NCBI GenBank assembly: GCA_024278175.1
Contig: JAJRTS010000085.1
Coordinates: 59,844-123,843 of the forward strand
DNA length: 64,000 nt
Origin: Gemmatimonadales bacterium
GTDB taxonomy: Bacteria > Gemmatimonadota > Glassbacteria > GWA2-58-10
Direction of reading: 5' to 3'
Shown in pieces: positions 23,179-58,559 of this stretch. The position numbers were made by a program, and so were the translations under genes. Position 1 is the first letter of the stretch. Every line of letters begins with the position of its first letter. The notes under the pieces were generated by a model. The model saw only the letters and a program-made list of their open reading frames with translations. It was not told the DNA's origin and did no database searches.

Positions 23179-23192
23179 CTTCCTCAACGCCT

Positions 23193-24149: not shown

Positions 24150-24370
24150 TCGTCTCTCCGCTAAGAAAAGTTATTTCACACTCCCCGGCCGTACAACTCA
24201 CCCGCCCCGCCGGATACCGGCCGCGGACACGGGCAAAGATAGTTTTTTTGCCCGCTCGATTCAAGTCATTCCCTCGCGCGAACCCCGGCTACGCTCCCCG
24301 GCGAGGGGTGAAAAACATGTTGACATCCGCCCCGGTCTGACCAATCTATAGCGACCGGGAGTTTTATCAG

Positions 24371-39586: not shown

Positions 39587-40294
39587 ATGGATATCCGGAG
39601 AAAAAGCCTGTTGGCCGGGGCCGCCCAGGCAAGCGGCTGCGCGGTTATTGTCGATGTGTTCCGGGCCTTCACCTGCGCCAGTATCATGCTGCACTATCGC
39701 CCGGCGCAGCTAAGGCTGGAGCAGGCCCCCCGGCAGTGTCTGCTTCTTAAGCGCGGGCAAGGATACCTGGCTGTCGGTGAAAATGAGGGTGTGCCGCTAG
39801 AGGGGTTCGACCTGGGTAACTCGCCCGGCGAGATCGCCGCCAGAGGCAGGGAGTTTTTTGCCGGGCGCAAAGTGGTCCTGCGCACCTCGGCTGGGGTGCG
39901 GGGTATTTTTGCCGCCAGAGAGCACGCAAAGTCCATCTGGGCCGGTTCGTATACCACCGCCGGCGCGCTGGCGAGGGCGATCACCCGCGAGTCCCCCCGC
40001 CAGGTGCAGATTGTGGCGATGGGCTGGGGCGGCCGGGAACAAACTCCGGAGGATGAGCAGTGTGCGCGCTACCTGCACTCCCTGCTGGACCCCGACCTCA
40101 GCTACGACCACGCGGCCGCGCTGGAGGAGATCATGGCCCACGAGAGCGCACGCAAATTCCTGCGGGCGGACAAGCAGCATTTTCCGCCCGGCGATCTGAC
40201 GTGGTGCCTGCAGCGCGACCTGTTCGATTTTGCGATGAAAGTGGACAACTCAGCGGGAACGTTGCGCTTGATCCGGGTAGATTCCGCCGGCTAA
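39587..40294 (+). CDS. 2-phosphosulfolactate phosphatase (ComB) family protein
   Basis: About 235 aa. The IVDVFRAFT N-terminus is typical of the ComB family. Confidence 0.6.
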   Translation: MDIRRKSLLAGAAQASGCAVIVDVFRAFTCASIMLHYRPAQLRLEQAPRQCLLLKRGQGYLAVGENEGVPLEGFDLGNSPGEIAARGREFFAGRKVVLRTSAGVRGIFAAREHAKSIWAGSYTTAGALARAITRESPRQVQIVAMGWGGREQTPEDEQCARYLHSLLDPDLSYDHAAALEEIMAHESARKFLRADKQHFPPGDLTWCLQRDLFDFAMKVDNSAGTLRLIRVDSAG

Positions 40295-41928
40295 CCCTGC
40301 TGCTCCGGCGGCGAACCGGACTCGTCCTGAGTGCCGGCGGGCTCCTGCTCCTCCTGCCCGTTGTCGGGAGGGTTTAAATCAAGGCTCTGGGTGGTGGCTG
40401 TCACCTTGCCGTCCTTGCGGGAGAGATACGAGGGGATTTTCTGATGGTCCAGCGGGTTAATTTCTTCCTCGTAGCCGCTCTTGGCCGCTATCAGTGAACC
40501 GATCAGCAATAACCCCGCTCCGATCAGTATCGACTCCCCCATCGCGGAAAAAACGATATAGTACAGGATCGAAATCAGCACGGCCAGACTGACCACGACC
40601 GGCGAGGCGAACAACACCTTGCGGATCGCCTGCATGGTCCTGATCCCGCCGGAGTTAAGCTCCAGGTAATCATTGATCAGCCGGGCAACAGCCTTCCGCG
40701 GCTTTCCGTGCAGGTAGAAATTAGCCAGCATCCTGATGTTGAACAGATCCTGATCCTGCCTGGAACTCTGCTTGCAAATCAGATAATGCTCCTCGCCGTC
40801 CACCGCTCTCAGCAGTGCCAGCATGTAGTTGCCGGGCAGGCGGTGGCAGGCGCCGGAGGCGATAAAGGGACGAAGGTTGTAGAGCACCTCGGAGCGAAGG
40901 TAGAAGCGGCCCTTTTTAGAGTTGCGGGACTGGTTGAAAAAACTTCCGGCTATCGAAGCTCCCGCCGGGGCAAGATCAGATTCAAGCGCGCCGGGACAGA
41001 CAAACTCGTAGCGCAGGGCGATCGCCCTGGCCCCGGTAACGGAGTTGGCGCGCACGTAATCGGCCAGTACCTCGATCCCCGCTTTCTGGATATTGCTGAT
41101 CTCAAGCTCCATCCCGGCGTCATTCATCGCCCGCTCCAGCTTTTCGAAATCGATCTCCCCGGAGTTTAACAAGCGGAAAACAGTGCTGATTTTCGTCAGG
41201 GCCTCCGCCTTGATAACACTCTCGTGAGCCAGTTGGTCGCGGATACCGCCCCCCTCGCTGTTCTGTTTATCGCTCTGATCGCTAAAGCGCTGAATCAACA
41301 TCGCCTCGTCGAAAATGGCGGGCAAACCGATCTGGCCGATTATTTCCCGAATCCCGAGGTCCTCCTCCAGCGGCCCTTTCAGCACACGGTAGCGCAGCTC
41401 CAGGTACTTTTGCATCCCCCGGCTCCAGATAAAGCGGAACAGCGGTTCCAGTTCAAGAGTGTGGACAAACTCCATCACCGTACCGGGATTAGCCGCTCCC
41501 GTGATCAGAAAATAGAGTCGGCGCACCTGGCTGTCGCTTACCTCTTTCGCTGAGCCGAGCTGTTCCAGCTGAAGTTTCCCGGCATCCGGGCTGAGCAGAA
41601 TCCGCAGGGTTTCCAGCTCACAACTGAGCGGCATCCTGTCGAACCGGTAAACCCTGCGGGCCAACGTATCAAGCGCCTTGTTGAGCGGTCCCAGGCTGAT
41701 CCCGAACTCGAAAGAGATAGTCAGCAGGGCGCTGTAATTACCGGCGGCTATCGCCTCGATTATCCGGGAAAAATAAACAACCTCCTCGCCCTGCTCGATC
41801 AGGCGGTTGTAGCGTGCTATTTTTATTTGATCACGAATTTGCGCCTTGGTGTGCATCGCTGTATTCCCGCTCGTGTGCTGTGATTTGCCTGCTGTCCGTG
41901 GGGCGGTGCTTACCGCCTCAATTATCAC
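40291..41928 (-). CDS. hypothetical protein with C-terminal TM helices
   Basis: 545-aa ORF, no recognisable catalytic motif. Two C-terminal TM helices and an acidic Pro/Gln-rich tail. Start uncertain (MHTKAQ at 41856 is possible). Confidence 0.4.
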   Translation of the reverse strand: MIIEAVSTAPRTAGKSQHTSGNTAMHTKAQIRDQIKIARYNRLIEQGEEVVYFSRIIEAIAAGNYSALLTISFEFGISLGPLNKALDTLARRVYRFDRMPLSCELETLRILLSPDAGKLQLEQLGSAKEVSDSQVRRLYFLITGAANPGTVMEFVHTLELEPLFRFIWSRGMQKYLELRYRVLKGPLEEDLGIREIIGQIGLPAIFDEAMLIQRFSDQSDKQNSEGGGIRDQLAHESVIKAEALTKISTVFRLLNSGEIDFEKLERAMNDAGMELEISNIQKAGIEVLADYVRANSVTGARAIALRYEFVCPGALESDLAPAGASIAGSFFNQSRNSKKGRFYLRSEVLYNLRPFIASGACHRLPGNYMLALLRAVDGEEHYLICKQSSRQDQDLFNIRMLANFYLHGKPRKAVARLINDYLELNSGGIRTMQAIRKVLFASPVVVSLAVLISILYYIVFSAMGESILIGAGLLLIGSLIAAKSGYEEEINPLDHQKIPSYLSRKDGKVTATTQSLDLNPPDNGQEEQEPAGTQDESGSPPEQQG

Positions 41929-43855: not shown

Positions 43856-44998
43856 TCAGCTCCGGTTGAACTCCTCGATAAACTTCATCGTCTTCTCCAC
43901 CTCTGCCTTTAGTTTCAGCGGGGCGCTCTCCAGGGCGGCCGCCCGGGCACCGATTACCGGCGAGAGGTCAACGTCAAGGCTTAGGGGCTCGGCCAGCGGA
44001 TTGGCGAAACCCAACCCGGCGCTGAGCTGCTCGGCCCGGGAGATAACGCAGGCCCCCAGCGCCAATCCCTGTCCGACGTTGCTCTCGAGACCGAAAGCGG
44101 CACAGTGGTGTAGTTCGATCATCTCGCACACCGAACGGGGTATCTCCCAATGCTCGGCCAGCAGCCTGCCCACGATCAGATGGTTGAAACCGAACAGTTC
44201 CTGCTCCACCCGCATCGGTTCCGGCTCCGGCTCATCGCCGCTCAGTCTTTGGTGCAGCACGGCGGCCCGGTCGCTGTCATAGCGCTCGAAAACCACCCAG
44301 CCGATGTCGTGCAGCAGCGCGGCTGTGGTGACCACGCCGATCTGCCCCGGTTGACCGATCACATCGCGCAACAGGTACTCCGCGCAGATACTAACCACGT
44401 GCGAGTGCATCCAGAACCTCAGCAGGTCGAACCGCTCGCCGAGCTGTTCCTGCCGCGAGTCCAGCCCTTTGTCCACCATCTGCTGGAAAATTATGTTTTT
44501 CACCTGGTTGTATCCCAGGTAGGTTATCGCCCTGGGCAACGAATCGATCCGGGTGCGAAGGCCGACGGCGGCCGCATTGACAGTCTTGAGTATTTTCCCG
44601 GCGTAAAACGGGTTCGAGGCCAGTACGTCGGCCAGCTCTTTCGGCTCCAGGTTGAAATCCAGCCGCACCATCCGCTCCCGGCCGATCTCCGGCATGAGAC
44701 GGATCGCGTGCTCCAGACGCCAGAGAGTCTCGGCCTCTATCTCCTCGCGCCCCAACGGCTTCCAGCCAGCGCCGGTGGCCGGCGCGGGAGCGCCCTCACC
44801 CCTGGAGTCCGCCTGCCTGCGCTCCACGATACCGTCAACCGGGTTACCGCTCCCATTCGTCGCGGCCCGGGTGTGCCTGCGCGGCTGACGGATCACCCTT
44901 TCGATCTTGGGCGGAGGCTTATTGCTTCCGCCGCGCAGCAGAACATATGCTGTCAGCAGCAGCACTGCGAACAGGATTAGAAAGGTCTGGGGGGCCAT
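43856..44998 (-). CDS. membrane-anchored HDOD-domain signalling protein
   Basis: N-terminal TM. HD-related output domain pattern (LLHDIG…, H…HH). Confidence 0.6.
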   Translation of the reverse strand: MAPQTFLILFAVLLLTAYVLLRGGSNKPPPKIERVIRQPRRHTRAATNGSGNPVDGIVERRQADSRGEGAPAPATGAGWKPLGREEIEAETLWRLEHAIRLMPEIGRERMVRLDFNLEPKELADVLASNPFYAGKILKTVNAAAVGLRTRIDSLPRAITYLGYNQVKNIIFQQMVDKGLDSRQEQLGERFDLLRFWMHSHVVSICAEYLLRDVIGQPGQIGVVTTAALLHDIGWVVFERYDSDRAAVLHQRLSGDEPEPEPMRVEQELFGFNHLIVGRLLAEHWEIPRSVCEMIELHHCAAFGLESNVGQGLALGACVISRAEQLSAGLGFANPLAEPLSLDVDLSPVIGARAAALESAPLKLKAEVEKTMKFIEEFNRS

Positions 44999-45236
44999 TG
45001 TTTGGATTCCCGGCGAGCGCGAGGATGAATTATTCGGCGGGGTTGATCAATATTAAATCCCGCGGCTAGCGGAAGTCAAGTTAATTACCCCGCGCGGGCC
45101 GCACCGCGCGTTGCCGGGCAGACTGGCAGAATAGTTATTTGAACTTGACTCATAAGCGGAAAATAGGGTACACTGTTACTTTGCCATCAGATATTGTGAA
45201 AATATTATCCGATGATTTCTTCCGGAGATCTCAGTT

Positions 45237-48200
45237 TTGATAAGTACTGTCAGGAAAATCCCCCCCGTTCTCCTGATTATTTTTTGCACGCTGTGCCAGT
45301 CAGTCTCCGGGCAGGCCGGCGGTGTGGACCGGGACTCCCTGCTGCGTGAAAACCGCCTGCTGCGCGAGCAGCTCGAACATCTCCAGGCACGCCGGGAGGC
45401 GTTTCGCTGGCGGCGTTTCCCCGACGGCCCCCTGCTCAGAAGCGGCACCGTGATGCAAATCGCCCCCGGCCCCGGCTCCAGGCTCGCCTTCGCAACCGAC
45501 AGCCAGGGTCTGGTGCTGTTCGACGGGACCTGGCTGGAGGTGTACGACAGCGAAAACTCATCCCTGCCGGACAATTTCGTTACCGCAACAGCTCTCTTTG
45601 GCGACAAGCTCTGGATCGGCACCGCCGCCGGGCTGGCGGTGCTGGACGCCGACGGCTCGATCCACCGGCCCGCTCCCCTGCCCGGGGAGCTTGCGGGCGG
45701 CACTGTCAGTTGCCTGCTGGCTGCGGGCGATTCCTCGCTCTGGGTGGGAACCCAGGGGGCCGGTCTGTGGCGTTTCGATGGCGAGCGCTGGCAGCAGTTC
45801 ACCTCGCCGGACACCGCCGCCGCCGGGCCGGGAGACATTAACGCGCTGGCACCCAGCGCACCGGGCGACGGAGTATGGGCAGCCACCGCCGGTGAGGGTA
45901 TCTGGCGGGTAACCGGCGGCGCCCTGAAGTGCTTTGGCCAGCCGCTTGGGCCGGGCAGCGAAGAAATCTACAGCGTGATAACCGACAGCGACGCCCTGGT
46001 CTGGATTGGCGCCGCGGGAGCGGGAGCGGGCTTCTGGGACGGGTTCGGCTGGCAGCGCGCTCCGTTGCCCGTGTCCGGCGGCGCGGGCGTGATCTGTATC
46101 GCCGAACTAACGGGCGGCGATCTCTTTTTCGGTACAACCGAAGGGGCCTGGTTCTACGTCCGGCAGGGCAACTCCTGGGAAAAGCTGCCGCTACCCGAGG
46201 AAATCGCCGCCGCGCCGATTGTCGCTGCCGCCGGGCGGAATGGCCGACTGTGGCTGGCCCCCAGCGGAAGCGGCGTCTATTTCCACGACCGTGGCCTGGC
46301 CACGCGCTTCGCCGCCGCCTCCGACCTGCCGTCTGAATCCGTGTATCAGATCAACCAGTCCGCCGATGGCCGCATCTGGTTTTCCACGTTCGGGGGCGTG
46401 GCCATATACGACGGGCGCCGCTGGAGCCGCCTCGACAGACGAAACGGCCTGCCGGACAACCTGGTCACGTTTACCCTGTTCGGGCCGGGAGACACTGTCG
46501 CGTTCGCCACCCACAGGGGAGCGGGCATCCTCTCCGGCGGCCGCTGGAAATACCTGAACAGAGACCTCGGCCTGCGCAGCAACACGATCAACCATCTCGC
46601 CCTGGACAGCCGCGACGGCCTGTGGCTCAGCACAGAGGGTGGTGGACTTACCCTTTCATACAAGGACTCCCTGCTGACATACACAACCGCTGAAGGCCTT
46701 CCCGCCAACCAGGTGCAAGCCGCCCTGCCCGCTGTCGGCGACAGCGTCTGGGTGGCCACCAAGCGGGGGCTGGCCCTGATCACGGGGGGGATGGTTTTGG
46801 GTCCGGCGGCTGATAACGCAACGGATGAGCCCGGGCCACCGGCCGTTCATTACACCGCCCTTGCGATGGACAGCCGGGGCGCGCTGTGGGCGGCCAGTGC
46901 GGGCGACGGGGCCTGGAGAAGAGACGCGGCCGGGCACTGGGAAAAGTTCGGCGTGGAAAACGGCCTGGGCTCCAACGAGGTCTATGCCGTGGCGACCCAC
47001 AGCGATGGGCGGCTGTTTTTCGGCACGCGGGCGGGACTGAGCATCTTCGACGGTTTAAGCTGGCGCAACCTGAGCGGGAAGGACGGGCTCAATCCCGGCG
47101 CTGTCAGGAGCGTGTTTGTCGATTCCGGCGGTGCGCTGTGGCTCTCCGGTGACCGTAACGGCGTGCTCAGGTTCGATACCGGCCGGCTGAAGCTGCCGGA
47201 AACCTATCTCGAAACACCATCCGGTGTGCTGTGCGCGCTCGGCCCCGCTGGAGAACCGCTCCGGCTCGCCCGCGCCGACTCCTCGGGCGAAGGCAGGCTG
47301 ATGCTGGGCAACAGCCGGTACGCTGCTCTGGCCGGCCCGGCCGGAGCCGATACGGTGCGTAGCAACCGGATCAATCTGAGCGTACACGCCGTCACGCCGT
47401 GGTGGAACACGCCCCGGTCCGATTTCACTTTCCAGTGGCGGCTGGACAACGACCCCTGGAGCAGCCACTTGGCGGGCGGTCATCTTACGGTTTTCGACCT
47501 TTCACGCGGCTCTCACGTGCTGGAAGTGCGCGCTCGCGACCCCTATCTCAGGCTGGACCCCACCCCGGCATCGTACAGTTTCTACGTGGACATCCCCACC
47601 CTGCTGGGCGACTGGCGTTTCTGGGCGGCCACGTTTGTGCTCGTCGGCGGTGCGCTTGGCCTCTGGCAGCGCCGCCGCCTGCAATGGTGGCTCAGCATAG
47701 TCCGGCACCGCCGTTTCCGGCCCGTTACGCCCAATCCGTTCAACCCCAACGCGCCCCAGAGCGAACAGGAGCGTTTCCGTGGCAGGGACGAACTGCTGGA
47801 GCGGCTGGCGGGCCTGTTTGACGGCAAGGACCACGGCTCGGTGATAATCCACGGCGGCGAGCGGATCGGCATGACCAGCTTCCTGTTGCAGTGCCGCAAC
47901 CTGGCTGGGCACACGGGAGCGCAAACCGTTTATCTCGACCTGGCCGCGGAAGCGTTTACCGGCGTGGACCGACTGGCAACGCGCCTGGCTGCAAAAATAG
48001 CGCATGATGAGACGGCGGCCGAACACGGCAAAAATAATCCGCTGGATACTCTTGCCGCCCTGCTGGAAACCGGTACCGAGCCGATGGTGCTGATATTCGA
48101 TAACGCGGAGTTGCTCGGCCGCCTGCTTCAGCGTGACAGCGAGCAGGGCAAACGCCTGGTGGCCCTTTTCAGGGCCGCCGTGCTCAAGGACCGCGCGGCG

Positions 48201-50033
48201 GCGTTCGTGTTCGGCACCGCTGAGCTGGATTCTTTCCGCGAGGGCGCGAAAACCCTGTTCGAGATGAGCAGGCTCTACCGCTTGGGGCCGGTCAATATGG
48301 ATGAAGCGGCCGCGATCCTAGCCCATCCCCTGCAAGGCCGCGCGGTGATCCACGCCAGGGCGCTGGAGATGCTGGCCACTCTTTCCGGCGGACAACCCTA
48401 CCTTCTGCAATGGCTGGGACGCGAGCTGGTGGAGGTGATCAACGCGGGGCAGAGCTCACTGGTTACGCTGGAACTGGCCGGACGCGCTGTGGCCAGGCTG
48501 GTGGCCGATCCCCCGCTGCCGCTGCTTGACAGCTGGGAGGAGCTGCCCCGGCGCGAAAAACTGGTGCTGGCCGCGATGTACAAAATCAGGGCGGAAGGCG
48601 ACGGCGGCTCGATGGCGGTGGGCGATATCCGCGCCGTGCTGGCCGGCCACGGAATCGAGATGCTGGCCGAGGAACTGGCCAAGGCCGCGGCCGACCTGTC
48701 GGAGCGCAATCTGGTAAAACTGGACACGCCCTCCGCCGCGCTGACCGCGCCCGATACCCTGCTCGGCCGCTGGATCGCCTCGGCCACCAGTATCCCGGCA
48801 ATCGCCGCGCGGCAGGAGTACGATATCGGCGAGGCGCTGCACCGCTTCTCCGACGAACTCAGCCGCTCGTTCCGTCTCGATGAGCTGGCCGGGCGGGTAC
48901 TGAGCTTTTTTGAATCGATTCTGCACCCGGAGTACTCCGCGTTTCTCACCGCGCGGCCCGCCGATAACGACGGGGAAGAACCGCTGTTAGTGCTCGAAAG
49001 CGTGGGTGGCAGCGGAACCGTCGCCAATCTGCCGGAAAAAATTCCGGCGGCCGCTCTGGAGCGCCTTTCGCTGATAGTGGAAAAAACAACGGAAAGCGCC
49101 GCGGAGACCTCCGGCTTCCCCGCCGGCTGCGTACTCGCTCCCCTGCTGGCCCGTGGCGAACCGGTGGGGCTGGTGGTGCTGGGACCCCGCCGCGACGGCG
49201 AGCGTTACAACAGCCGCGACAGGATGCTGCTGGAGACCTGCGCCGAGCAGACGGCGGTGGCGATGGAGAACTCGCGGCTCTACGAGGAAGAGACTGAAAA
49301 AGAGCGGCTCAAGCAGGAACTCGATACCGCGCGCCGGATGCAGATGGCGATCCTTCCCGAGCGCAAGCCGGATATTCCCGGACTGGACTTTTGCGCCTAT
49401 CTGTCGCCGGCCACCGAGGTCGGCGGGGACTACTACGACTACAAGCTGCTCGATTCGGGCCAACTGGTGTTCGTCATCGGCGATGTGAGCGGGCACGGGG
49501 TCAGCGCCGGGACATTGGTTACAATGTCCAAAAGCTGTATATTTAATCAACTGCGCACGAGCCACGCCGTGGAGCAGGTGATGAGCGCGATGAACGAGAT
49601 GGTTTACGGGGCGCTGGCCGAAAAGTTACTGATGACGCTCTGCTACGCCATTATCGACCCGGCCGCCGGCAAGCTGGTTTACTCGATAGCCGGCCACCCG
49701 TTCCCCTACCACGTGCACGCGGCCGACGGTACGCTGAGCGAGCTCGATATCAGCGCTTATCCGCTGGGGGTTACCCGTAAGGCCCGCTTCAGGACCGCCG
49801 AGGTAAATTTCGCCCCCGGTGATTCGTTCGTGTTTTTCTCCGACGGGATAGTGGAGGCCCAAAACCCGGAGAACGAGCAGTGGGGGTTCGAGCGATTCGA
49901 ACAGGTGGTGACCGGCAACGCAGGCCTGGACGCCGAGTCGCTCACCGGCAAGATTCTGAGCGAGTTTGACGACTTCCGCCGGGGCGTGCCCCAGGACGAT
50001 GACGTTACTTTAGTGACTATCAAGGTGCGATGA
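45237..50033 (+). CDS. giant envelope sensor: signal peptide, Reg_prop beta-propeller + Y_Y_Y, TM, AAA-like ATPase, GAF, PP2C/SpoIIE phosphatase
   Basis: About 13 repeats of the L(W/F)(I/V)GTxxG(L/A)xxxDG type (two-component regulator propeller), TM at about aa 790, Walker-A-like HGGERIGMTSFL, GAF core, C-terminal SpoIIE motifs (GDVSGHGVSAG … FSDGIVEA … DDVTLV). Confidence 0.75.
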   Translation: MISTVRKIPPVLLIIFCTLCQSVSGQAGGVDRDSLLRENRLLREQLEHLQARREAFRWRRFPDGPLLRSGTVMQIAPGPGSRLAFATDSQGLVLFDGTWLEVYDSENSSLPDNFVTATALFGDKLWIGTAAGLAVLDADGSIHRPAPLPGELAGGTVSCLLAAGDSSLWVGTQGAGLWRFDGERWQQFTSPDTAAAGPGDINALAPSAPGDGVWAATAGEGIWRVTGGALKCFGQPLGPGSEEIYSVITDSDALVWIGAAGAGAGFWDGFGWQRAPLPVSGGAGVICIAELTGGDLFFGTTEGAWFYVRQGNSWEKLPLPEEIAAAPIVAAAGRNGRLWLAPSGSGVYFHDRGLATRFAAASDLPSESVYQINQSADGRIWFSTFGGVAIYDGRRWSRLDRRNGLPDNLVTFTLFGPGDTVAFATHRGAGILSGGRWKYLNRDLGLRSNTINHLALDSRDGLWLSTEGGGLTLSYKDSLLTYTTAEGLPANQVQAALPAVGDSVWVATKRGLALITGGMVLGPAADNATDEPGPPAVHYTALAMDSRGALWAASAGDGAWRRDAAGHWEKFGVENGLGSNEVYAVATHSDGRLFFGTRAGLSIFDGLSWRNLSGKDGLNPGAVRSVFVDSGGALWLSGDRNGVLRFDTGRLKLPETYLETPSGVLCALGPAGEPLRLARADSSGEGRLMLGNSRYAALAGPAGADTVRSNRINLSVHAVTPWWNTPRSDFTFQWRLDNDPWSSHLAGGHLTVFDLSRGSHVLEVRARDPYLRLDPTPASYSFYVDIPTLLGDWRFWAATFVLVGGALGLWQRRRLQWWLSIVRHRRFRPVTPNPFNPNAPQSEQERFRGRDELLERLAGLFDGKDHGSVIIHGGERIGMTSFLLQCRNLAGHTGAQTVYLDLAAEAFTGVDRLATRLAAKIAHDETAAEHGKNNPLDTLAALLETGTEPMVLIFDNAELLGRLLQRDSEQGKRLVALFRAAVLKDRAAAFVFGTAELDSFREGAKTLFEMSRLYRLGPVNMDEAAAILAHPLQGRAVIHARALEMLATLSGGQPYLLQWLGRELVEVINAGQSSLVTLELAGRAVARLVADPPLPLLDSWEELPRREKLVLAAMYKIRAEGDGGSMAVGDIRAVLAGHGIEMLAEELAKAAADLSERNLVKLDTPSAALTAPDTLLGRWIASATSIPAIAARQEYDIGEALHRFSDELSRSFRLDELAGRVLSFFESILHPEYSAFLTARPADNDGEEPLLVLESVGGSGTVANLPEKIPAAALERLSLIVEKTTESAAETSGFPAGCVLAPLLARGEPVGLVVLGPRRDGERYNSRDRMLLETCAEQTAVAMENSRLYEEETEKERLKQELDTARRMQMAILPERKPDIPGLDFCAYLSPATEVGGDYYDYKLLDSGQLVFVIGDVSGHGVSAGTLVTMSKSCIFNQLRTSHAVEQVMSAMNEMVYGALAEKLLMTLCYAIIDPAAGKLVYSIAGHPFPYHVHAADGTLSELDISAYPLGVTRKARFRTAEVNFAPGDSFVFFSDGIVEAQNPENEQWGFERFEQVVTGNAGLDAESLTGKILSEFDDFRRGVPQDDDVTLVTIKVR

Positions 50034-52147
50034 ACCAGCAAAAATCCATAGCCGCCCTTCCGGAGCTGGCCGCGGCACTCGAAGAGCTGGACGGGCTCTG
50101 CCGCTCGTTCGACCGCGTACCCGGAGCTCAGGCGGTTTTCCCGCAAGTACTGGAAACGGTTGGTCGGATCTGCGGCGGGGTGGAGTTGCAGGGCTACCTG
50201 TATGACAAGGCCAGGGCCGTGTTCGAACCATTCGGCGGCCCGGCGGAGCAGGGTCTCACTAGGCTGGCCATGCCAAACCATCTGTTTGAAATCCTCTCCG
50301 GGGCCAGGGGACGGATCGCGGACGAGCCATTCGAACTGGAAGCCCTGAGCCAGTCCCACCCGTGGTGGAATTTCCATGAGTGCAACAACGTGGCGATCAA
50401 GCGCAACCGGATCGTGGCCATTTACCCGCTGGTCTCCGCGCGCGAGGTGCTGGGCCTGATCGCCCTGGACGCGGGCGGACTGGAGCAGGTGAGCGAGGCC
50501 GGTTCGGTTAACCTGTTGAGACTGGCGGCCGCCCAGATCGCACTGGGACTGAGCCACCTGAGCCTGGTGTCCACAATCCGCCGGACCAGCTTCCAGAGCA
50601 GGCTCAAGGCCCTGGAGCTGGAAACGCTTCAGGATGTGGGCATGGCGTTCGCCGGCAGCCTGGACCTTAAGCAACTCACCGGCGACCTGCTGATGCGGGT
50701 GATCTCGATCCTGAATGTCAACCGCGCCGCCGTACTGCTCGACAACGCGCCGGGCCGCGACAATCTGGCAGGCGAATTCCGCCCGGAGGTGGTGGAAAGT
50801 TTCGGGCTGGAAGAGCTGGAGGAAACGTTGGTGGACTCGCTGGCAGGTTGCCCACAGGCCGCGGCCAACCTGCTGGAGAACTCTCCCACCGTGATCAATG
50901 ATCCCGCCCTGGCCGCGGAGCTGGGCTGCCGCAACCTGATGGTCGTGCCGATCCAGTACAAGGGGCAGTTGCTGGGCGCGATCCTGGTGGGCGACAAAGA
51001 AAGCCGCAGCGAGCCTGAGCCAACCTTCGGCGACGACGACCTTCGCCTGCTGAGCGCGATGGCGGGTCAGGCGGGCGCGGCTATTTCCAATGCGCGGCTC
51101 TACAGCGACGTGCTGCGGATGAAGAATTTCAACGAAAATATCCTGACCAGTATCGCCAGCGGGGTGATTACCACCGGCGGCGACAACCGGGTGGTGAGTT
51201 TCAACGACTCCGCCGCCCGCATATTCGGGATTTCTCCCACCCGTGCGGTGGGCATGAGCGTGGAGGCACTGTTCTCCCAACTGGAGCTGAGTGAGCTGGC
51301 CGGTAAGATTACCGCGATAAAAAAATCAGGCGAGCATTTCCAGGAGATGAACGTAACGGCTTCCGGCCCCGGCGGCGATGAACTTTCGCTCAACGTGAGC
51401 GTCACCCCGTTCAGCGGCGGGCAGGATCCCGGCGGCCTGGAAACCGACAGCGGGGCCGGACTGGTGATTTCGCTGGAAAACGTGAGCGAGGGGGCCAGAA
51501 TCAAGGACACGCTGCGGCGCTATGTGAGCGCCAACGTGGCCGACATGGTGCTCGCGGAAGGCCATCAGCTTGTGCTGGGCGGCAAGCTCAGCGAGGTCAC
51601 TGTGCTGTTTGCCGATATCCGCGGTTTCACCTCGCTCAGTGAACGTCGCTCACCCCAGGAAGTGGTCGAATTGCTGAACAGTTACTTTGACTTGATCATC
51701 GACGTGGTTTTCCGCTACAATGGTACAGTGGATAAAATTGTCGGCGATGAGATCATGGTCCTGTTCGGCGCTCCCTTCCCGCTGGAAGACGACACCGAGA
51801 GGGCAGTGCGTTGCGCCATGGAGATGCTTGCCGAGCTTGAAAAATACAACGCCGCGCGAACCGGCAGCGGACAGGATCCGCTTAAGATCGGGATCGGGCT
51901 TAATCGCGGCAACGTAATCAGTGGCAATATCGGCTCGGCCAAGCACATGGACTACACGGTGATCGGCGATGCGGTCAACCTGGCCAGCCGCCTGGTGGAC
52001 AACGCCGCTCCCGGACAGATTCTGCTCACCCGCAGCGTGGCCGGCCAGTTGGGAGAGGAATTCCCCTGCCGCCGGATCGGCGAGATCATGGTTAAGGGCA
52101 AGCGAAAACCTGTCGAAATCTTTGAAATAGCGAGTGAAGCGCAATGA
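50030..52147 (+). CDS. GAF/PAS-regulated class III adenylate (nucleotidyl) cyclase
   Basis: C-terminal CHD: VTVLFADIRGFTSLSE…KIVGDEIMVLFGAP…GLNRGNVISGNIGS. ATGA overlap with the upstream sensor gene. Confidence 0.8.
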   Translation: MNQQKSIAALPELAAALEELDGLCRSFDRVPGAQAVFPQVLETVGRICGGVELQGYLYDKARAVFEPFGGPAEQGLTRLAMPNHLFEILSGARGRIADEPFELEALSQSHPWWNFHECNNVAIKRNRIVAIYPLVSAREVLGLIALDAGGLEQVSEAGSVNLLRLAAAQIALGLSHLSLVSTIRRTSFQSRLKALELETLQDVGMAFAGSLDLKQLTGDLLMRVISILNVNRAAVLLDNAPGRDNLAGEFRPEVVESFGLEELEETLVDSLAGCPQAAANLLENSPTVINDPALAAELGCRNLMVVPIQYKGQLLGAILVGDKESRSEPEPTFGDDDLRLLSAMAGQAGAAISNARLYSDVLRMKNFNENILTSIASGVITTGGDNRVVSFNDSAARIFGISPTRAVGMSVEALFSQLELSELAGKITAIKKSGEHFQEMNVTASGPGGDELSLNVSVTPFSGGQDPGGLETDSGAGLVISLENVSEGARIKDTLRRYVSANVADMVLAEGHQLVLGGKLSEVTVLFADIRGFTSLSERRSPQEVVELLNSYFDLIIDVVFRYNGTVDKIVGDEIMVLFGAPFPLEDDTERAVRCAMEMLAELEKYNAARTGSGQDPLKIGIGLNRGNVISGNIGSAKHMDYTVIGDAVNLASRLVDNAAPGQILLTRSVAGQLGEEFPCRRIGEIMVKGKRKPVEIFEIASEAQ

Positions 52148-52611
52148 GCCCGAACGACGCCGGAGAATACACGTTCGACCGGGTGGAGCACATGAGTATC
52201 CCCGCCGAGCCGAACCGGGAACTGGAGGTGGCCGAGCGGGCGTTCGAGCTGGCGCGCGGCGTGGGCCTTGGCGCCGACGAGGCCGACGAGGTGCGGCTGG
52301 CGGTGATCGAGGCGGTGATCAACGCGATCGAACACGGCCGCAACGAGCAGGGCCGGGTGCAGGTCTCTTTCTCCACCGGCAGCAGACCCGCCAGGCTGGC
52401 GGTAACCGTGGGCGACAGCGGCCGCGGGTTCGACCCCTCGCGGGTTGCTGCGCCCAACATTGCAGAGAAGATCGGTACAAATCAACGCAAAAGGGGCTGG
52501 GGACTTAAGTTGATGCGCAGCCTGATGGACGAGGTGATAGTCGACAGCAGCGCCAAAGGCACCCGGGTGACCCTGATCAAACAGGCTAAAGTACTGCCCG
52601 GCCTGGGGTAA
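52144..52611 (+). CDS. RsbW/SpoIIAB-like anti-sigma factor (HATPase_c serine kinase)
   Basis: 155 aa, N-box-like EAVINAIEHG, G-box DSGRGF. ATGA overlap with the cyclase gene. Confidence 0.75.
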   Translation: MSPNDAGEYTFDRVEHMSIPAEPNRELEVAERAFELARGVGLGADEADEVRLAVIEAVINAIEHGRNEQGRVQVSFSTGSRPARLAVTVGDSGRGFDPSRVAAPNIAEKIGTNQRKRGWGLKLMRSLMDEVIVDSSAKGTRVTLIKQAKVLPGLG

Positions 52612-52690
52612 GATTTTTCCCATGACGATGGATAAGCAATTATTTACCATTGAGTTATTAATCCGCCCCCGGCCGCAGGGGCGGGAACGA

Positions 52691-52719
52691 TTGACATCTG
52701 GCTGAGGCCGCTCTACATT
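52691..52719 (+). promoter_or_regulatory. candidate sigma70 promoter TTGACA-N17-TACATT upstream of the STAS gene
   Basis: Read from the sequence. Preceded by the GC hairpin ccgcccccggccgcaggggcgg, a possible terminator of the upstream operon. Confidence 0.4.
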
Positions 52720-52828
52720 ATTTTCCATAGATTCCGGCCGCGCCGCCACGGGAATACTTAAGTCCAGCCGCACTGGACAGCTTCTCCCGGCGAGGCGTCC
52801 GCTTAACCGTCACCGACGGAGTGAAGCA

Positions 52829-53179
52829 ATGCCCGACAATTTCGAAGTAATCGTACAGCGGGAGGCCACCTACGCGATCCTTCGCACCGAAGGCTACATC
52901 AACAACACGGGCGGGGAAAAAATCGCCCGGGAATGCTACAAGATGCTCGACGACGGGATCGGGGTATTTATCCTCAACCTGGCCAAATCCCCGATTGTCA
53001 ACAGTGTCGGCATCGCCGTGCTGATCGAGTTGATCGAGCGGGTGCGGGAAGACGGCGACAAGGTGATCTTTTGCAACTGCACTCCTGTTATCGCGAAAAC
53101 TTTCAAAATCATGGGCCTGACCCAGTACGCCGAGTTATACGAAAATGAAAAAGAAGCTCTGGCAAATATCCGCTCGTAG
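52829..53179 (+). CDS. STAS-domain anti-sigma-factor antagonist (RsbV/SpoIIAA-like)
   Basis: 116 aa. The conserved phospho-Ser region LAKSPIVNSVGIAVLIEL. Confidence 0.75.
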   Translation: MPDNFEVIVQREATYAILRTEGYINNTGGEKIARECYKMLDDGIGVFILNLAKSPIVNSVGIAVLIELIERVREDGDKVIFCNCTPVIAKTFKIMGLTQYAELYENEKEALANIRS

Positions 53180-54311
53180 CCTGCTGGCCGCGCTGCTGAT
53201 GCTGACGGCGACAACTTCGCCGGTACGCGCCGTGTTCGACAGCAGCACGCTGGACGGGCGGCAGTACATCAATATCATCTTCATTCTCGACTGCTCTGCC
53301 AGCATGAACAAAATCATCGGCCCGGTGCGCAAGATTGACATCGCCAAGAGAACTGTCGATACGATCCTGAAGAACCTGGCGATCGAGAGCCACCAGGCCG
53401 GATCGATGGATACGGGTCTTCGCGTGTTCGGCTCCAAGTTCTACAAGTGGAAAAAAAACTGCGACGATACCACGCTGGAAATCCCGCTCGGTGATATCGA
53501 GGACACGATGACCCCAATCCTGCTGGCGGTCCAGGGAGTAACCGCCAAGGGCCAGAGCTCGCTGGCGCTGACCATGGACGCGTTGACAGGAGATTTTCCC
53601 GTTGCCGATGACCAGTGCAGTTTTATCATCGTTGTCTCGGACGGCGACGAATCCTGCGGCGGCAACCCCTGCATGGCGGTGGAGCAACTGGCCAGCGCAT
53701 CCCAGGGCATTTCCGTCAACACGCTGGGTGTTGAAACCGACCCCGCCGGTTATGACAACCTGAACTGCATGGCCGAGGCCGGTAACGGGCTCTATTTCGA
53801 CTCCAAGGACGTGGACGAGTTTATCCTGTTCCTCAAGGACTGTAACGAGAAAATCCAGCAAAACAGGCAGAAACTGGCCGACTCCGTGATTGATACGACA
53901 GTAATCACCCGGCGCGACATTACCGAAAGCATGACCGAGTACAAGGTCGAAAGCCCGGTCCCGCTCTATCCCGATCACGACGACAGGTTCGCTCCGGTGG
54001 ACACTCTTACTCCCGATGACAAGGTTTTCATGCTTTCCAGCCGCGGTTTGTGGATCGAGGTGTTTGCGCCGGATAAACAGATCCAGGGCTGGATTCTGGC
54101 AAAGCGGGGCGGCTCGGAGTATTCGGTTACCGTTACCGACGACAAAACCCCGCTTTACGTGGAAAAGAGCCCATCGAGCGAGGTTGTGACTTACCTGGAC
54201 GCGGGCACCCAGCTAACAGTCCTCAAACGCGAGGGGGCGTGGTACAATGTTATCGACACCAACACGAATGTCCGCGGCTGGGTGATCGCTTTCAACGTGG
54301 CCGAGAACTGA
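53145..54311 (+). CDS. secreted von Willebrand factor A (VWA) domain protein with C-terminal SH3b-like repeats
   Basis: Signal peptide. MIDAS-like DCSASM. Two C-terminal segments of the LYVEKSPSSEVVTYLDAGTQLTVL…GWV type. Confidence 0.6.
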   Translation: MKKKLWQISARSLLAALLMLTATTSPVRAVFDSSTLDGRQYINIIFILDCSASMNKIIGPVRKIDIAKRTVDTILKNLAIESHQAGSMDTGLRVFGSKFYKWKKNCDDTTLEIPLGDIEDTMTPILLAVQGVTAKGQSSLALTMDALTGDFPVADDQCSFIIVVSDGDESCGGNPCMAVEQLASASQGISVNTLGVETDPAGYDNLNCMAEAGNGLYFDSKDVDEFILFLKDCNEKIQQNRQKLADSVIDTTVITRRDITESMTEYKVESPVPLYPDHDDRFAPVDTLTPDDKVFMLSSRGLWIEVFAPDKQIQGWILAKRGGSEYSVTVTDDKTPLYVEKSPSSEVVTYLDAGTQLTVLKREGAWYNVIDTNTNVRGWVIAFNVAEN

Positions 54312-54358: not shown

Positions 54359-55339
54359 ATGGCCGGAGTACTGAAAAAATTCACCCGTGGTGAGGTGATA
54401 ATCGCCGAGGGTTCGGTAGGGACAAATGTCTATATCGTCCGCTCCGGCCGGGTGGAGGTTTTCAAAAACAGTTCCACCGGCGCGCTGCAACTGGCCACCC
54501 TGGGGGCCAACGAAGTGTTCGGCGAGATGAGCCAGATCGACGAGCGTTTCAGCCGCCGCACGGCCAGTGTGAGGGCTATCGAGGACTGCGAAATCATCAT
54601 TCTCGACCGCGAGGGTTTCGACAACTACCTCAAGGGTACCTCGGCCGGTATCTCCAACCTGATCAAGCGCCTCTCGAACCGCCTTCGCGAGACCAACGAT
54701 ATCATCTCCCACGCGGGCCTGGACCCGCGGAACCTGCCCAAAGCGATCAAGCTGACCAAAGCCGATAACGGCGAGGGCAGGCTTACAGACGACCAGTTGG
54801 CCGAGTCGGTGAACGCGGCCGTGGATCTTCAACTGCTGCCCAAAAAATTCAGCAAGGGACAGACGCTGATCCGTGAAAACGCCGAGGCGATGAGCCTGTT
54901 CATGCTGAAAAGCGGCACTGTGCGCGTGTTCAAAACGGTGGCCGGCGAAGAAGTGGAGATCGACGACCTGACGGTGAACGAGGTGTTCGGCGAGATCAGC
55001 GCGTTCGACGAGGGCGTGAGGTTTTTTACGGTCAAGGCGCTCGATGACGGCGAGGCGGTGGTATTCAGCAAGAGGCAGATGGACGAAATGTTGCGCAAGG
55101 CGCCCCTGGAGCTGTTCCTGATCCTGGACTGTGTCGTGATGAAGCTGAAACGCACTTCGCTCAGATACCTGGAATCGCTGGAAAAGGAAGTTATTCACAA
55201 GCGGGAAATTACCAGCAAGGACGAGGAAATCTCCCGGCTGAGCAGTGAAAAAGAGGAACTGGCCCGGCAGGTAAAGGAACTAACCGGCAAGGTTGAGCAA
55301 CTGAACGATCAAATCCGAAAACTTCAGCCGCAGCAGTAA
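54359..55339 (+). CDS. tandem cyclic-nucleotide-binding domain protein with C-terminal coiled coil
   Basis: Two cNMP beta-roll domains (FGEMSQIDERFSRRTASVRA; FGEISAFDEGVRFFTVKA), then a coiled coil. Confidence 0.7.
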   Translation: MAGVLKKFTRGEVIIAEGSVGTNVYIVRSGRVEVFKNSSTGALQLATLGANEVFGEMSQIDERFSRRTASVRAIEDCEIIILDREGFDNYLKGTSAGISNLIKRLSNRLRETNDIISHAGLDPRNLPKAIKLTKADNGEGRLTDDQLAESVNAAVDLQLLPKKFSKGQTLIRENAEAMSLFMLKSGTVRVFKTVAGEEVEIDDLTVNEVFGEISAFDEGVRFFTVKALDDGEAVVFSKRQMDEMLRKAPLELFLILDCVVMKLKRTSLRYLESLEKEVIHKREITSKDEEISRLSSEKEELARQVKELTGKVEQLNDQIRKLQPQQ

Positions 55340-56399: not shown

Positions 56400-58514
56400 T
56401 CAGACATAGGGTTTGACCTTTTCCCGTACCTGCTCGTAGTTGCACGGCTTGATCAGGTAATCGTTGGCCCCGCTGCGCTCGATCTGCCGCAGCAGGACCG
56501 CGCTGTTCACATCGCTCATCACGATCACCGGGGTCTCGGCTGTCGCCTCGGCCGAGCGCAACTGTTTGAGCGCCTCCAGCCCGTTGACCAGCGGCATTCG
56601 TAAATCCAGCATCACCAGGTCCGGAGCTTCGCGGGCCACCGCCGAGAGCAGCGCCTTTCCGTTGAAAACCGCTGTCGCCTTGAACCCCTCGTGGTTTAAC
56701 CTGGCGCAAATATCCTTGCAGAACCTGATATCGTCGTCGGCCACCAGGATTTTGATCCCCTCTTCCCGGCGGGCGATTTTCTTCCTCGCAACCTTCAGAT
56801 TGCGCTGCACAATTTCCTCGCTGTCCTTTTCCGGCACCTTGAGCAGGCTTTTCAGCTCCGGTTGATGTTGTCCTATTTCTCCGATCAGCCAGACGCCGCT
56901 GGCTCTCATTTTTCCGTCCTTGGAGAGCAGCATGTCCTCCAGCGAGTCCCGGATATCCCTGTGCCCGAAATTCCAGATTGCTTTTAGCGTATTGGCCCGC
57001 ACCCGGTTGTCCTTATCGTACTTGTATTTCATCAGGATTCCCATCACGTTGCGGTTGCCGATTGCCTCCAGCGATTCGATCACGTTGGCGCGCACACGGG
57101 CGTTCTTATCGTTGAGCATCTTCATCAACAGGCTGCTCTCGTGCTGATCCAGCATCTCGGCGATCAGTTTGACCGTGGTTGCCCGCACCTTGTCGTCCTC
57201 GTCCACGATAATATCGGCCAGTGTCCTGGCCGTGAAATCCTTATCCTCGCGGATCAGGATATCCAGTATCTTCCGGATCGTGACCGGGTTGGGAATCTCC
57301 ATGTTTTGCAGATAAGAAAAGCGGCTGTCCAGACCGACCACGAAATCGATCAGCTTCTTTTTCTGCCGGATACCCAGAATCGGCGTTTCCTCGTTTTCCC
57401 GCAGCAGGCGCAGGACAATCTTGATCGTAGTGCCCCGCGCCAGGTTGCGAAGAAATACGCTCTTGTACTGCGCCAGCGGCAGAATGTGCTTCAGCGCATC
57501 GAGCCCGCCGGTATTCGCCAGTTCCTTCAGTGGTTTGATCTTGTTGCTGTCCGGCATGTCCTTGAGTTGGGAGGCCAGAACCTCGGCGCGCTTTACGGGG
57601 TCCTTTATCGTCGATGGGTCTATTTGTTTCTGTTTCACATCCCTTGCCTGCGCTGCCTCCCTGTCCTCGTCGGTGGCGCTTTCGCCCGGCTGCCCGCCCC
57701 CCTGAGGCGTGCTCTCGCCCGCCAGCTCATTTTCGTCCCCGCCACCGGTACCGCCGTCGCCGCCCAGCTCCCGCACCAGTTCCTCCACTTCCCGCCTTAC
57801 TTTTTCGAACACTTCTCCGGCCCGGTTCTCCACCGCCTTGTTTCTCAACGCGCCGATCTCGATATAGTAGTACAGGCATTGGCTGAGTCTCTTGATATTC
57901 TCGCCATATGTCTTAACCATATTGTTCTGCGAATCCAGCTTCTGCTCCCGGCGGGACTCCTCCAGTGTGGCCTGGACTTTCTCGATCTGCGCCTCCAGCA
58001 ACGTGGGATTAGCCAGCCGGAGAATCAGCAGGTTCAACATACCCTCATCAAGCCCAGCGGGCATGGCTTGTTCGCCCTGCTCGCTTTCGCCGTTTTCCTG
58101 TTCTTGCTCAAGCTCATCGATTTGCCCACGAAGTTTCTGATACAGTTCCTGCTGTTCCTGCTGCTCTTTGGAAAGACTTCCGTTGCCGGTAGCAGGTACC
58201 TGCAGCAACTCCACCAGTTTGCCGGCGGTGGCGATATCGATCTCCCCGAGCCACTGCGTTCTGTTAACGGCGGCTTCCTTGTGCCCGGCGTTCATGAACA
58301 GGATCCGCTTAAACACAAGGGCCTCGCGGATTTTTTCGATCTCCAGCCGGTAATACTGCTGAAATCTGTCCAGTACTCCCCACCCCTGCTCGTGAGCGCC
58401 ATTGCTGTCGAAAACCTCGTCCAGAACGCGCTTGACCCGATCCAGCGGCTGATGGTCGCCGGCAATCTCCACCAGAGTGCGCAAGATTTTTTTCAGTATC
58501 GCGCAGAGCAACAC
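56400..58514 (-). CDS. HEAT-repeat (PBS-lyase type) protein with C-terminal receiver (REC) domain
   Basis: Multiple D(K/D)xxRVRAxxxxAL repeats. C-terminal ILVADDD…DLRMP…KP receiver. Same frame as ORF 58560-59213, separated by one TAG. Confidence 0.7.
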   Translation of the reverse strand: MLLCAILKKILRTLVEIAGDHQPLDRVKRVLDEVFDSNGAHEQGWGVLDRFQQYYRLEIEKIREALVFKRILFMNAGHKEAAVNRTQWLGEIDIATAGKLVELLQVPATGNGSLSKEQQEQQELYQKLRGQIDELEQEQENGESEQGEQAMPAGLDEGMLNLLILRLANPTLLEAQIEKVQATLEESRREQKLDSQNNMVKTYGENIKRLSQCLYYYIEIGALRNKAVENRAGEVFEKVRREVEELVRELGGDGGTGGGDENELAGESTPQGGGQPGESATDEDREAAQARDVKQKQIDPSTIKDPVKRAEVLASQLKDMPDSNKIKPLKELANTGGLDALKHILPLAQYKSVFLRNLARGTTIKIVLRLLRENEETPILGIRQKKKLIDFVVGLDSRFSYLQNMEIPNPVTIRKILDILIREDKDFTARTLADIIVDEDDKVRATTVKLIAEMLDQHESSLLMKMLNDKNARVRANVIESLEAIGNRNVMGILMKYKYDKDNRVRANTLKAIWNFGHRDIRDSLEDMLLSKDGKMRASGVWLIGEIGQHQPELKSLLKVPEKDSEEIVQRNLKVARKKIARREEGIKILVADDDIRFCKDICARLNHEGFKATAVFNGKALLSAVAREAPDLVMLDLRMPLVNGLEALKQLRSAEATAETPVIVMSDVNSAVLLRQIERSGANDYLIKPCNYEQVREKVKPYV

Positions 58515-58559
58515 CTGCCGGCGCAGGCTCGCCAGCGGCTCACCGTGGTTGATCTGGTC

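Follow-up and report, generated by a model that had tools for sequence, protein, structure and literature searches.

Several described signalling systems share parts with the locus analysed here. Among the hybrid two-component systems (HTCS) of Bacteroides, the sensor BT4663 senses heparin/heparan sulphate. Activation of RsbU, a phosphatase of the PP2C (PPM) type, involves a linker that forms a crossed coiled coil and dimerises the PPM domains, and it has been argued that GAF-, PAS-, REC- and HAMP-linked PPMs share this coiled-coil linker mechanism (PMC12143880). In the SiaABCD system of Pseudomonas aeruginosa, the unphosphorylated partner protein activates a nucleotide cyclase, the diguanylate cyclase SiaD (PMC8457831, PMC7647112). 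Here we analyse a 64,000-nt stretch of DNA (hereafter, the window) from the Gemmatimonadales bacterium contig JAJRTS010000085.1, which encodes a 1598-aa protein (45237..50033, plus strand) that joins an HTCS-type periplasmic sensor to a SpoIIE/PP2C phosphatase. We put at roughly 70% the probability that this protein is the transmembrane (TM) input phosphatase of a partner-switching module, feeding the kinase/STAS pair encoded downstream of it.

The sensor gene was delineated from the list of open reading frames (ORFs), its Pfam domains and its full-length orthologues. It begins with a TTG codon that has a GGAG motif 9–12 nt on its 5' side, and the orthologues share the same N-terminal start position in the alignment. 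A consensus scan found a candidate sigma-70-like promoter 5' of the gene (TTGCCA-16-TATTAT; 45181..45208, plus strand), which is a pattern match alone, with 10 of 12 positions matching. The encoded protein consists of a signal peptide, a double β-propeller, a β-sandwich, a TM segment, a P-loop/winged-helix module, a GAF domain, a linker and the SpoIIE/PP2C domain. A preliminary description of this DNA, which placed an ATPase-like module between the TM segment and the GAF domain and the PP2C domain after them, had this order right in outline.

The C-terminal SpoIIE/PP2C (PPM) domain (49365..50030, plus strand) was identified by its Pfam match, invariant residues and sequence matches in the PDB. 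The Pfam SpoIIE profile (PF07228) covers aa 1407–1597 with an E-value of 1e-44 (153 bits against a cut-off of 25), and the PDB matches of the domain are Rv1364c, P. aeruginosa RssB and SiaA (6K4E). Invariant in 15 orthologues are the PPM motifs GGDYYD, DVSGHG, SDG and DDDVT, as well as five residues (D1398, D1416, D1536, D1588 and D1589) which we take to be the metal-coordinating aspartates. The PPM domain is thus predicted to be catalytically complete, with its metal ligands intact. A Pfam scan found no HisKA, HATPase_c, receiver or AraC helix-turn-helix domain in the polypeptide, and the earlier proposal that a SpoIIE/PP2C output takes the place of a histidine kinase is upheld. The PPM domain is preceded by a GAF domain (aa ~1200–1345; 48834..49271, plus strand) and by a helical linker (aa 1346–1376, LYEEETEKERLKQELDTARRMQMAILPE; 49272..49364, plus strand) that is nearly invariant in the orthologue alignment. 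With 25.1 bits, Pfam GAF (PF01590) is slightly above its cut-off of 22.4, whereas GAF_2 and GAF_3 fall slightly short of theirs, and a GAF domain is recorded in the orthologues too; the sole PDB match of this domain, 5W10, spans its last third only.

The sensor gene is followed on the plus strand by the components expected of a partner switch and by a nucleotide cyclase. The ATG codon of the second gene (50030..52147) overlaps the sensor stop codon, and its product is a class III adenylate/guanylate cyclase with GAF and PAS domains (Pfam Guanylate_cyc, E-value 1e-31), whose position is kept in 11 of the 14 loci examined. Read by eye, the cyclase has what we take to be the metal-binding Asp pair, the Lys/Asp pair that specifies adenine and the Asn/Arg transition-state residues, and is presumably an adenylate cyclase. 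The ATG of the next gene (52144..52611) overlaps the cyclase stop codon in turn. This gene codes for a 155-aa RsbW/SpoIIAB-like serine kinase (HATPase_c_2, E-value 7e-27; PDB matches to RsbW, 6M36, with an E-value of 2e-10, and to SpoIIAB), whose N, G1 and G2 boxes are conserved in the orthologues. The candidate substrate is a 116-aa single-domain STAS protein (52829..53179; Pfam STAS, E-value 5e-13): its Ser59 aligns with the phosphorylated Ser58 of SpoIIAA and lies within the motif SPIVNSVGIA, which is invariant in 10 orthologues. The last two genes, assigned by Pfam and synteny, encode a secreted protein with VWA and SH3_3 domains (53145..54311) and a tandem cyclic nucleotide (cNMP)-binding protein with a C-terminal coiled coil (54359..55339; cNMP_binding, E-value 6e-40, in two stretches). 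The latter is a candidate reader of the cyclase product; its start codon, at ~54359, was picked by comparison of orthologue lengths. The sensor and cyclase genes, and likewise the cyclase and kinase genes, are joined by 4-nt ATGA overlaps, and the gene order from the sensor to the cNMP-binding protein is identical in 10 of 10 loci that extend through the operon, at sensor identities of 43–72%. A divergent gene for an HDOD/HD-domain protein (43856..44998, minus strand; Pfam HDOD, E-value 3e-33; synteny) stands beside the sensor gene in most loci.

In the mechanism that we propose, the periplasmic HTCS-type double propeller and β-sandwich, a fold known from computed models, would bind an extracytoplasmic ligand, and the signal would be transmitted through one TM helix to the cytoplasmic ORC/Cdc6-like P-loop/winged-helix module. 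This module would probably be neither a motor nor a switch but a scaffold for oligomerisation or coupling that works independently of nucleotides, because the residues required for nucleotide hydrolysis, and probably those for binding, have been lost (see below). The GAF domain and helical linker, placed by the scaffold, would then set the dimerisation and activity of the PPM domain, as in RsbU/RsbZ-type phosphatases (PMC12143880). Homology and conserved co-location suggest that the active PPM domain would remove the phosphate from Ser59 of the STAS protein (52829–53179) and that the RsbW-like kinase (52144–52611) would be the enzyme that phosphorylates this residue. The least certain step is the output, where the switch may be coupled to the co-translated class III adenylate cyclase and the tandem cNMP-binding protein, by analogy with SiaABCD. 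We propose such a lineage-specific link between the partner switch and cAMP synthesis only tentatively and regard it as doubtful on balance. The complete chain would be decidedly unlikely to hold in all its parts: in it, an extracytoplasmic signal, possibly a glycan, would reach the PP2C domain by way of an ORC/STAND-derived scaffold that works independently of nucleotides, the dephosphorylated STAS protein or the freed kinase would then directly switch the class III adenylate cyclase, and the tandem-cNMP protein would read the cAMP.

Analysis of one genome per GTDB species showed that the sensor family is present in nine contigs only: four belong to metagenome-assembled genomes (MAGs) labelled Candidatus Glassbacteria, three to 'uncultured Gemmatimonadales' and one to an 'archaeon', and the last is a distant match in an unclassified bacterium. 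The 'archaeon' contig (L010; DATKXY010000274.1, 'MAG TPA_asm: archaeon') carries a complete Glassbacteria-type cluster with bacterial partner-switch genes, and this bin is probably mislabelled or contaminated. Among the collections searched, the sensor is confined to MAGs labelled Candidatus Glassbacteria or Gemmatimonadales/Gemmatimonadota, plus this bin. Outside the lineage, the closest homologues of the STAS protein (47–56% identity) are found in Acidobacteriota, Chloracidobacterium and Ignavibacteria, always within kinase-STAS-(GAF-GAF-)SpoIIE trios. Thus, the kinase, the STAS protein and the PP2C phosphatase form a recurrent unit. The trio kinases are 36–43% identical, and the trio PP2C domains 27–33% identical, to the proteins of the window, and no sigma factor and no cyclase were found in these trios. 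Judging from this comparison, Glassbacteria have a derived version of the unit: its phosphatase has gained a propeller-TM-pseudoATPase front end, and a cyclase gene has come to lie inside the operon. Proteins that combine Reg_prop, Y_Y_Y and SpoIIE domains and have no ATPase-like insert (P0017, P0024, P0027 and P0031) occur in Acidobacteriota and other groups.

Several observations weigh against the proposed scheme. First, its functional steps are all ones that we infer. Second, the single TM segment (aa ~793–812, WRFWAATFVLVGGALGLWQ, then RRR; 47613..47672, plus strand) stays under the cut-off of 1.5 in a 19-residue Kyte-Doolittle hydropathy scan; the prediction of one TM helix at this site draws on topology, on conservation, including the invariant FRPVTPNPFNP motif that follows, and on a short hydrophobic stretch with charged residues at its borders (DWR before it and QRRR after it). 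Third, loss of the Lys from a P-loop would not necessarily abolish binding of a nucleotide or of some other phosphate ligand. Fourth, the flanking housekeeping genes for Dus, HhH-GPD and aldose epimerase are also syntenic across these MAGs, so that conservation of gene order by itself is weaker evidence of functional linkage than it looks. Fifth, the 217-bp gap between the kinase and STAS genes (52611–52829) contains a sigma-70-like match (TTGACA-17-TACATT, 52691..52719; consensus scan), a possible internal promoter from which the STAS, VWA and cNMP-binding genes could be transcribed. Finally, the operon encodes no sigma factor or other classical target of a partner switch, and the link to a cyclase, absent from the trios of Acidobacteriota and Ignavibacteria, would be specific to the Glassbacteria lineage.

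The alternative that survives best is that the partner switch acts on an unlinked sigma factor or another distant target, with the cyclase and cNMP-binding genes forming a separate unit that merely happens to be co-located. It has on its side the sigma factor targets of the classical RsbU/V/W and SpoIIE/AA/AB modules, the lack of a cyclase in the nearest homologous trios and the generally high synteny in the lineage. However, the cyclase gene sits between the phosphatase and kinase genes and overlaps with both, an arrangement kept in every locus that extends through the operon, and the only sigma-70 r2 ORF in the window (17594–18124, minus strand; small and ECF-like) is more than 25 kb away from the operon. 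We consider action on an unlinked target unlikely, while giving it more weight than any of the explanations discussed below. A second cNMP-binding protein is encoded at 1971–2963 (minus strand); it and the sigma-70 r2 ORF could each belong to the same regulatory network.

The part of the sensor for which we propose a scaffold role is a degenerate ORC/Cdc6-like P-loop domain (ATPase_2/AAA_16/nSTAND-type) with a lid and a winged helix (aa 825–1191; 47709..48809, plus strand), recognized by AlphaFold2 (AF2) modelling, Foldseek and profile search. The AF2 model of aa 825–1200 (pLDDT, the confidence score of the model, 87.4) comprises a P-loop α/β core, a helical lid and a winged helix, and its best Foldseek matches in the PDB are archaeal Orc1/Cdc6, eukaryotic ORC subunits and RuvB (E-value 1e-10). 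In Pfam, AAA_16 matches aa 846–979 below threshold (19 bits against a cut-off of 32.6). The relatives of the module come from an exhaustive profile search, which retrieved 9197 representative proteins (3411 of them at E-values ≤1e-10) with the Pfam names ATPase_2, AAA_16, AAA_22 and nSTAND1/2; a word-indexed search with the module alone returned the fragment P0121 only and missed the orthologues. In many of these relatives, the module sits after FG-GAP, PD40 or BNR propellers or after dCache-HAMP or 7TMR-DISM regions.

Comparison of motif columns between 17 members of the window's family and 129 canonical relatives revealed changes at the nucleotide site. In the Walker-A remnant GGERIGMTS (47853..47879, plus strand), Lys is replaced by Met879: this position holds M, L, V or I in 17 of 17 family members (G[M/L/V/I][TS]S), as opposed to K in 100% of the canonical relatives (GK[TS]). 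In the Walker-B remnant VLIFDNAE (48087..48110, plus strand), Glu is replaced by Asn956, with DN in 82% of the window's family against DE in the canonical relatives (E in 99%); three orthologues have D, R or G at position 956. The preceding RR pair, found in 98% of the canonical relatives, is E/K in the window's family, and a conserved Gln of the canonical relatives is missing as well. Residues of the scaffold (G849, R850, G878, S881, D901, D955, P1054, W1100 and W1179) are retained. Losses restricted to nucleotide-site positions in a preserved scaffold are the pattern expected of a pseudo-enzyme that is conserved because of its shape, as far as can be told from the sequence. The module is best called a pseudo-ATPase scaffold that has lost the residues for nucleotide hydrolysis and probably those for binding too. 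The preliminary description had listed it as an ATPase with the motifs GERIGMTS and DNAELL; the motifs are there and the fold is ATPase-like, but a working ATPase is not what the loss of the Walker-A Lys and, in nearly all members, of the Walker-B Glu would suggest.

It is in this light that one has to view the module as a STAND switch that is still nucleotide-dependent, with ATP/ADP exchange gating its oligomerisation. Consistent with such a switch, the family still has the loop rich in glycine with the Ser/Thr that follows, as well as the Walker-B Asp and, further downstream, a conserved Glu (D955...E958), and the fold is intact at high model confidence. Furthermore, the Walker-A Lys is present in a sister clade (P0126, P0129, P0130, P0131, P0133, P0140 and P0198), which consists of Reg_prop-ATPase-Ser/Thr kinase-GAF-HisKA-HATPase proteins of 1200–2200 aa and has the same DNAE variant of Walker B as the window's family; the proteins with this domain order that form the nearest clade have ~2100–2200 aa. 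Nevertheless, a hydrophobic residue in place of the Lys in all family members, together with the further losses at nucleotide-site positions (RR pair, Walker-B Glu and Gln) and the retention of the scaffold residues, makes this switch improbable. Among the canonical relatives, there are proteins of ~1000–1150 aa (P0132, P0136, P0141, P0148, P0150, P0165 and others) in which an NPY...P-loop...winged-helix module with GKT and DE motifs forms the C-terminus. Their N-termini are FG-GAP, PD40, BNR, dCache-HAMP or 7TMR-DISM regions, and no other output domain was detected in them; these proteins seem to represent a receptor-ATPase architecture that is widespread and as yet uncharacterised.

The periplasmic half of the sensor begins after a signal peptide or N-terminal hydrophobic segment (aa 1–25; 45237..45311, plus strand), which has the top hydropathy of the protein and a predicted cleavage site between CQSVSG and QAGG. 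A conserved periplasmic helix (aa ~31–55, ENxxLxERLxxLEARRExFRW; 45327..45401, plus strand), seen in the orthologue alignment, precedes the first blade; F56, R57 and W58 are invariant. It is possibly a dimerisation element, and to our knowledge no such pre-propeller helix has been described for HTCS sensors. The following region (aa ~58–646; 45408..47174, plus strand) comprises two seven-bladed Reg_prop β-propellers, as judged by Pfam (Reg_prop repeats, E-value 7e-25), AF2, Foldseek and phmmer. An AF2 model of aa 55–795, built on 17 sequences (mean pLDDT 87.3), shows 14 four-stranded blades in two propellers of seven, followed by a C-terminal β-sandwich. The top Foldseek matches of this model in the PDB are the periplasmic domains of BT4663, BT3049 and BT4673 (E-values 1e-34 to 1e-28), with alignments of ~790 columns at 16–18% identity, and the next-ranked match is PorZ, which belongs to the type IX secretion system and is located at the cell surface. 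A PDB sequence search of the sensor also retrieves 4A2L (phmmer E-value 2e-22), 3V9F and 3OTT. The membrane-proximal β-sandwich is Y_Y_Y-like (aa ~655–784; 47199..47588, plus strand; strands at model residues 601–730) and falls within the full-length HTCS alignment, whereas the Pfam Y_Y_Y profile has no match in the sensor at E-values ≤1. Thus, profile search, structure model and comparison with the Bacteroides sensors, of which BT4663 is the best match, agree on an HTCS-type propeller, as had been suggested from the sequence at first sight. The Reg_prop part of the original Reg_prop/Y_Y_Y assignment holds, as does the β-sandwich in the model, with the Y_Y_Y profile itself unmatched; likewise, the propeller repeats were rightly seen, and their number has to be changed from about 13 blades to 14.

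This resemblance invites the reading that the sensor is a glycan-sensing phosphatase, with an oligosaccharide as the ligand of its propeller, as in BT4663, and with control over genes of polysaccharide utilisation. The periplasmic domain is homologous to that of heparin-sensing BT4663 and has the same fold as this and other Bacteroides HTCS sensors; purely on this fold match, a carbohydrate ligand is possible. However, an identity of 17–18% to BT4663 is too low to assess conservation of the ligand site, and Reg_prop sensors in many phyla carry many different outputs. The window has a few genes for proteins resembling carbohydrate-active enzymes (CAZymes), where the preliminary description had counted many glycoside hydrolases. 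Pfam annotation yields just three, located 21–33 kb upstream of the sensor gene: a 1067-aa GH35/42-like ORF (21061–24264, minus strand), a DUF2961 protein (18305–19480, plus strand) and a weak polysaccharide-lyase match (11840–12700, minus strand). The true extent of the GH35/42-like ORF is uncertain, as its G+C content at third codon positions (GC3) is 0.68, below the 0.82 of a 318-aa ORF that overlaps it. The intervening genes are housekeeping ones and include those for a lipoamide dehydrogenase-like protein, the nuo operon, phosphofructokinase, SIS, aldose epimerase, a ComB-like phosphatase, Dus and HhH-GPD. The orthologous loci, examined over ±10 kb, contained no CAZyme genes, and there were no SusC/SusD-type genes of a polysaccharide utilisation locus (PUL) among the annotated genes of the window. 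The conserved neighbours of the sensor are signalling genes, namely those for the cyclase, the RsbW-like kinase, the STAS protein, the cNMP-binding protein and the HDOD protein. The argument for polysaccharide sensing from genomic context fails because the CAZyme-like genes are distant and none are present near the orthologous loci, and we regard a role in glycan sensing as improbable.

An anti-phage or other conflict system, either STAND-based or Pycsar-like (a cyclase with a cNMP-binding effector), is far less probable still. Modules of the nSTAND type are common in conflict systems (PMC7159879, PMC8195603), and the PADLOC profiles for Pycsar cyclase and effector match the cyclase and the cNMP-binding protein of the operon. 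These matches span the generic cyclase and cNMP-binding domains only, no TIR or other effector domain was found, and the sensor, kinase and STAS protein have no PADLOC match. In addition, the locus lies among syntenic housekeeping genes in every MAG, which is not the setting of a mobile defence island, and the sensor domain points to the periplasm. The generic nature of the PADLOC matches and the synteny led us to reject this candidate.

A search of protein databases with the sensor retrieved one identical protein and ~15 further clusters of full-length (~1600 aa) proteins with 43–76% identity, one of which comes from a Gemmatimonadota bacterium and bears the NCBI annotation of a SpoIIE family phosphatase. 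Overall, about 17 protein clusters contain the sensor at full length. An assembly chimera of a propeller sensor gene with an ATPase-GAF-PP2C gene, which the unusual length alone and the apparent split of the sensor into 1193-aa and 463-aa products in one genome might suggest, is excluded for practical purposes, because at least 15 orthologues from independent assemblies (NCBI, ENA, JGI and Logan) are colinear through the TM region, with the TM and juxtamembrane motifs conserved, and the base composition is even along the gene. The 1598-aa ORF is thus genuine, as originally reported. The split products are P0005 (propeller-TM-P-loop, 1193 aa) and P0121 (GAF-SpoIIE, 463 aa), which result either from a frameshift or from a natural two-gene form.

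Past the gene for the cNMP-binding protein, the window encodes an LD-carboxypeptidase and, on the opposite strand, a HEAT-repeat receiver protein (56400–59165, minus strand). The latter gene has an in-frame TAG codon at 58560–58562 that divides it into ORFs of 217 and 704 aa; its orthologues have 911–918 aa, and tblastn produces one continuous high-scoring segment pair of 928 columns across the TAG, for which a nonsense mutation, an error in sequencing and recoding are all conceivable. At Rfam gathering thresholds, there was no RNA element in the 43–60 kb region. Four sizeable ORFs with coding-like GC3, all on the minus strand (40291–41928, 37200–38357, 5797–7182 and 20228–21079), are without a Pfam match; for the first two, the related loci contain syntenic counterparts that Pfam does not match either.

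If the proposed scheme is correct, a module of the AAA+/STAND type deprived of its nucleotide site has been reused as a passive coupler between a membrane receptor and a GAF-PPM phosphatase, and the output of a partner switch may go to a cAMP circuit rather than to a sigma factor. This would extend the view of bacterial signalling as a modular toolkit. Literature searches found no description of the sensor architecture, of a partner switch that controls an adenylate cyclase or of a pseudo-STAND module that acts as a transmembrane relay. The scheme would also provide a first concrete signalling hypothesis for Candidatus Glassbacteria, a candidate lineage known here from MAG-derived sequences only.

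In comparison with known systems, the sensor has the periplasmic layout of the Bacteroides HTCS proteins BT4663, BT3049 and BT4673, in which two seven-bladed Reg_prop propellers and a membrane-proximal β-sandwich are followed by a single TM segment. It differs from them in its low identity (17–18%), in lacking a significant Pfam Y_Y_Y match, in being encoded outside a PUL and in its output, which is a PP2C domain reached through a pseudo-ATPase and a GAF domain instead of HisKA/HATPase, receiver and AraC domains. Over its whole length, with the NPF/NPY motif at one end and the winged helix at the other, the pseudo-ATPase matches the ATPase_2/AAA_16/nSTAND modules of other receptors, including those of the sister clade (E-values down to 1e-46). 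The canonical modules keep GK[TS] and DE, unlike those of the window's family, which is the sole group found here with a GAF-PP2C C-terminus.

The output half of the sensor resembles phosphatases of the RsbU/RsbP/RsbZ/SpoIIE type, being a SpoIIE-family PPM with intact metal ligands that is preceded by a GAF domain and a helical linker (PMC12143880). As in the RsbU-RsbV-RsbW and SpoIIE-SpoIIAA-SpoIIAB systems, an RsbW-like kinase and a STAS protein with a conserved phosphorylatable Ser are encoded at the same locus. Unlike these phosphatases, the sensor has an extracytoplasmic double propeller, a TM anchor and an ORC/Cdc6-like pseudo-ATPase insert, and its operon has a class III cyclase gene between the phosphatase and kinase genes and no sigma factor gene. 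In gene content, the operon is analogous to that of SiaABCD, in which a PP2C anchored in the membrane (SiaA) is encoded together with a kinase, a partner that can be phosphorylated and a nucleotide cyclase. It differs in having a class III cyclase and not one of the GGDEF type, a classical STAS protein as the partner, an RsbW-like kinase and an unrelated sensor part, and the cyclase is a candidate target of the switch by its gene position; the NCBIfam SiaA score of the sensor is below threshold (60 against a cut-off of 700).

The fusion of a propeller to a SpoIIE phosphatase is shared with the Reg_prop(+Y_Y_Y)-SpoIIE proteins of Acidobacteriota and other groups, which are shorter (~1100–1250 aa), have no P-loop/winged-helix insert and possess a recognisable Pfam Y_Y_Y match. 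Since such fusions exist elsewhere, the principle of connecting a propeller to a PP2C phosphatase is already known, and the downstream logic of the locus is like that of ordinary partner switching. The preliminary description had spoken of a new way of transducing glycan signals; rather than being a demonstrated new glycan pathway, the sensor represents an uncommon version of a signalling scheme that is already known.

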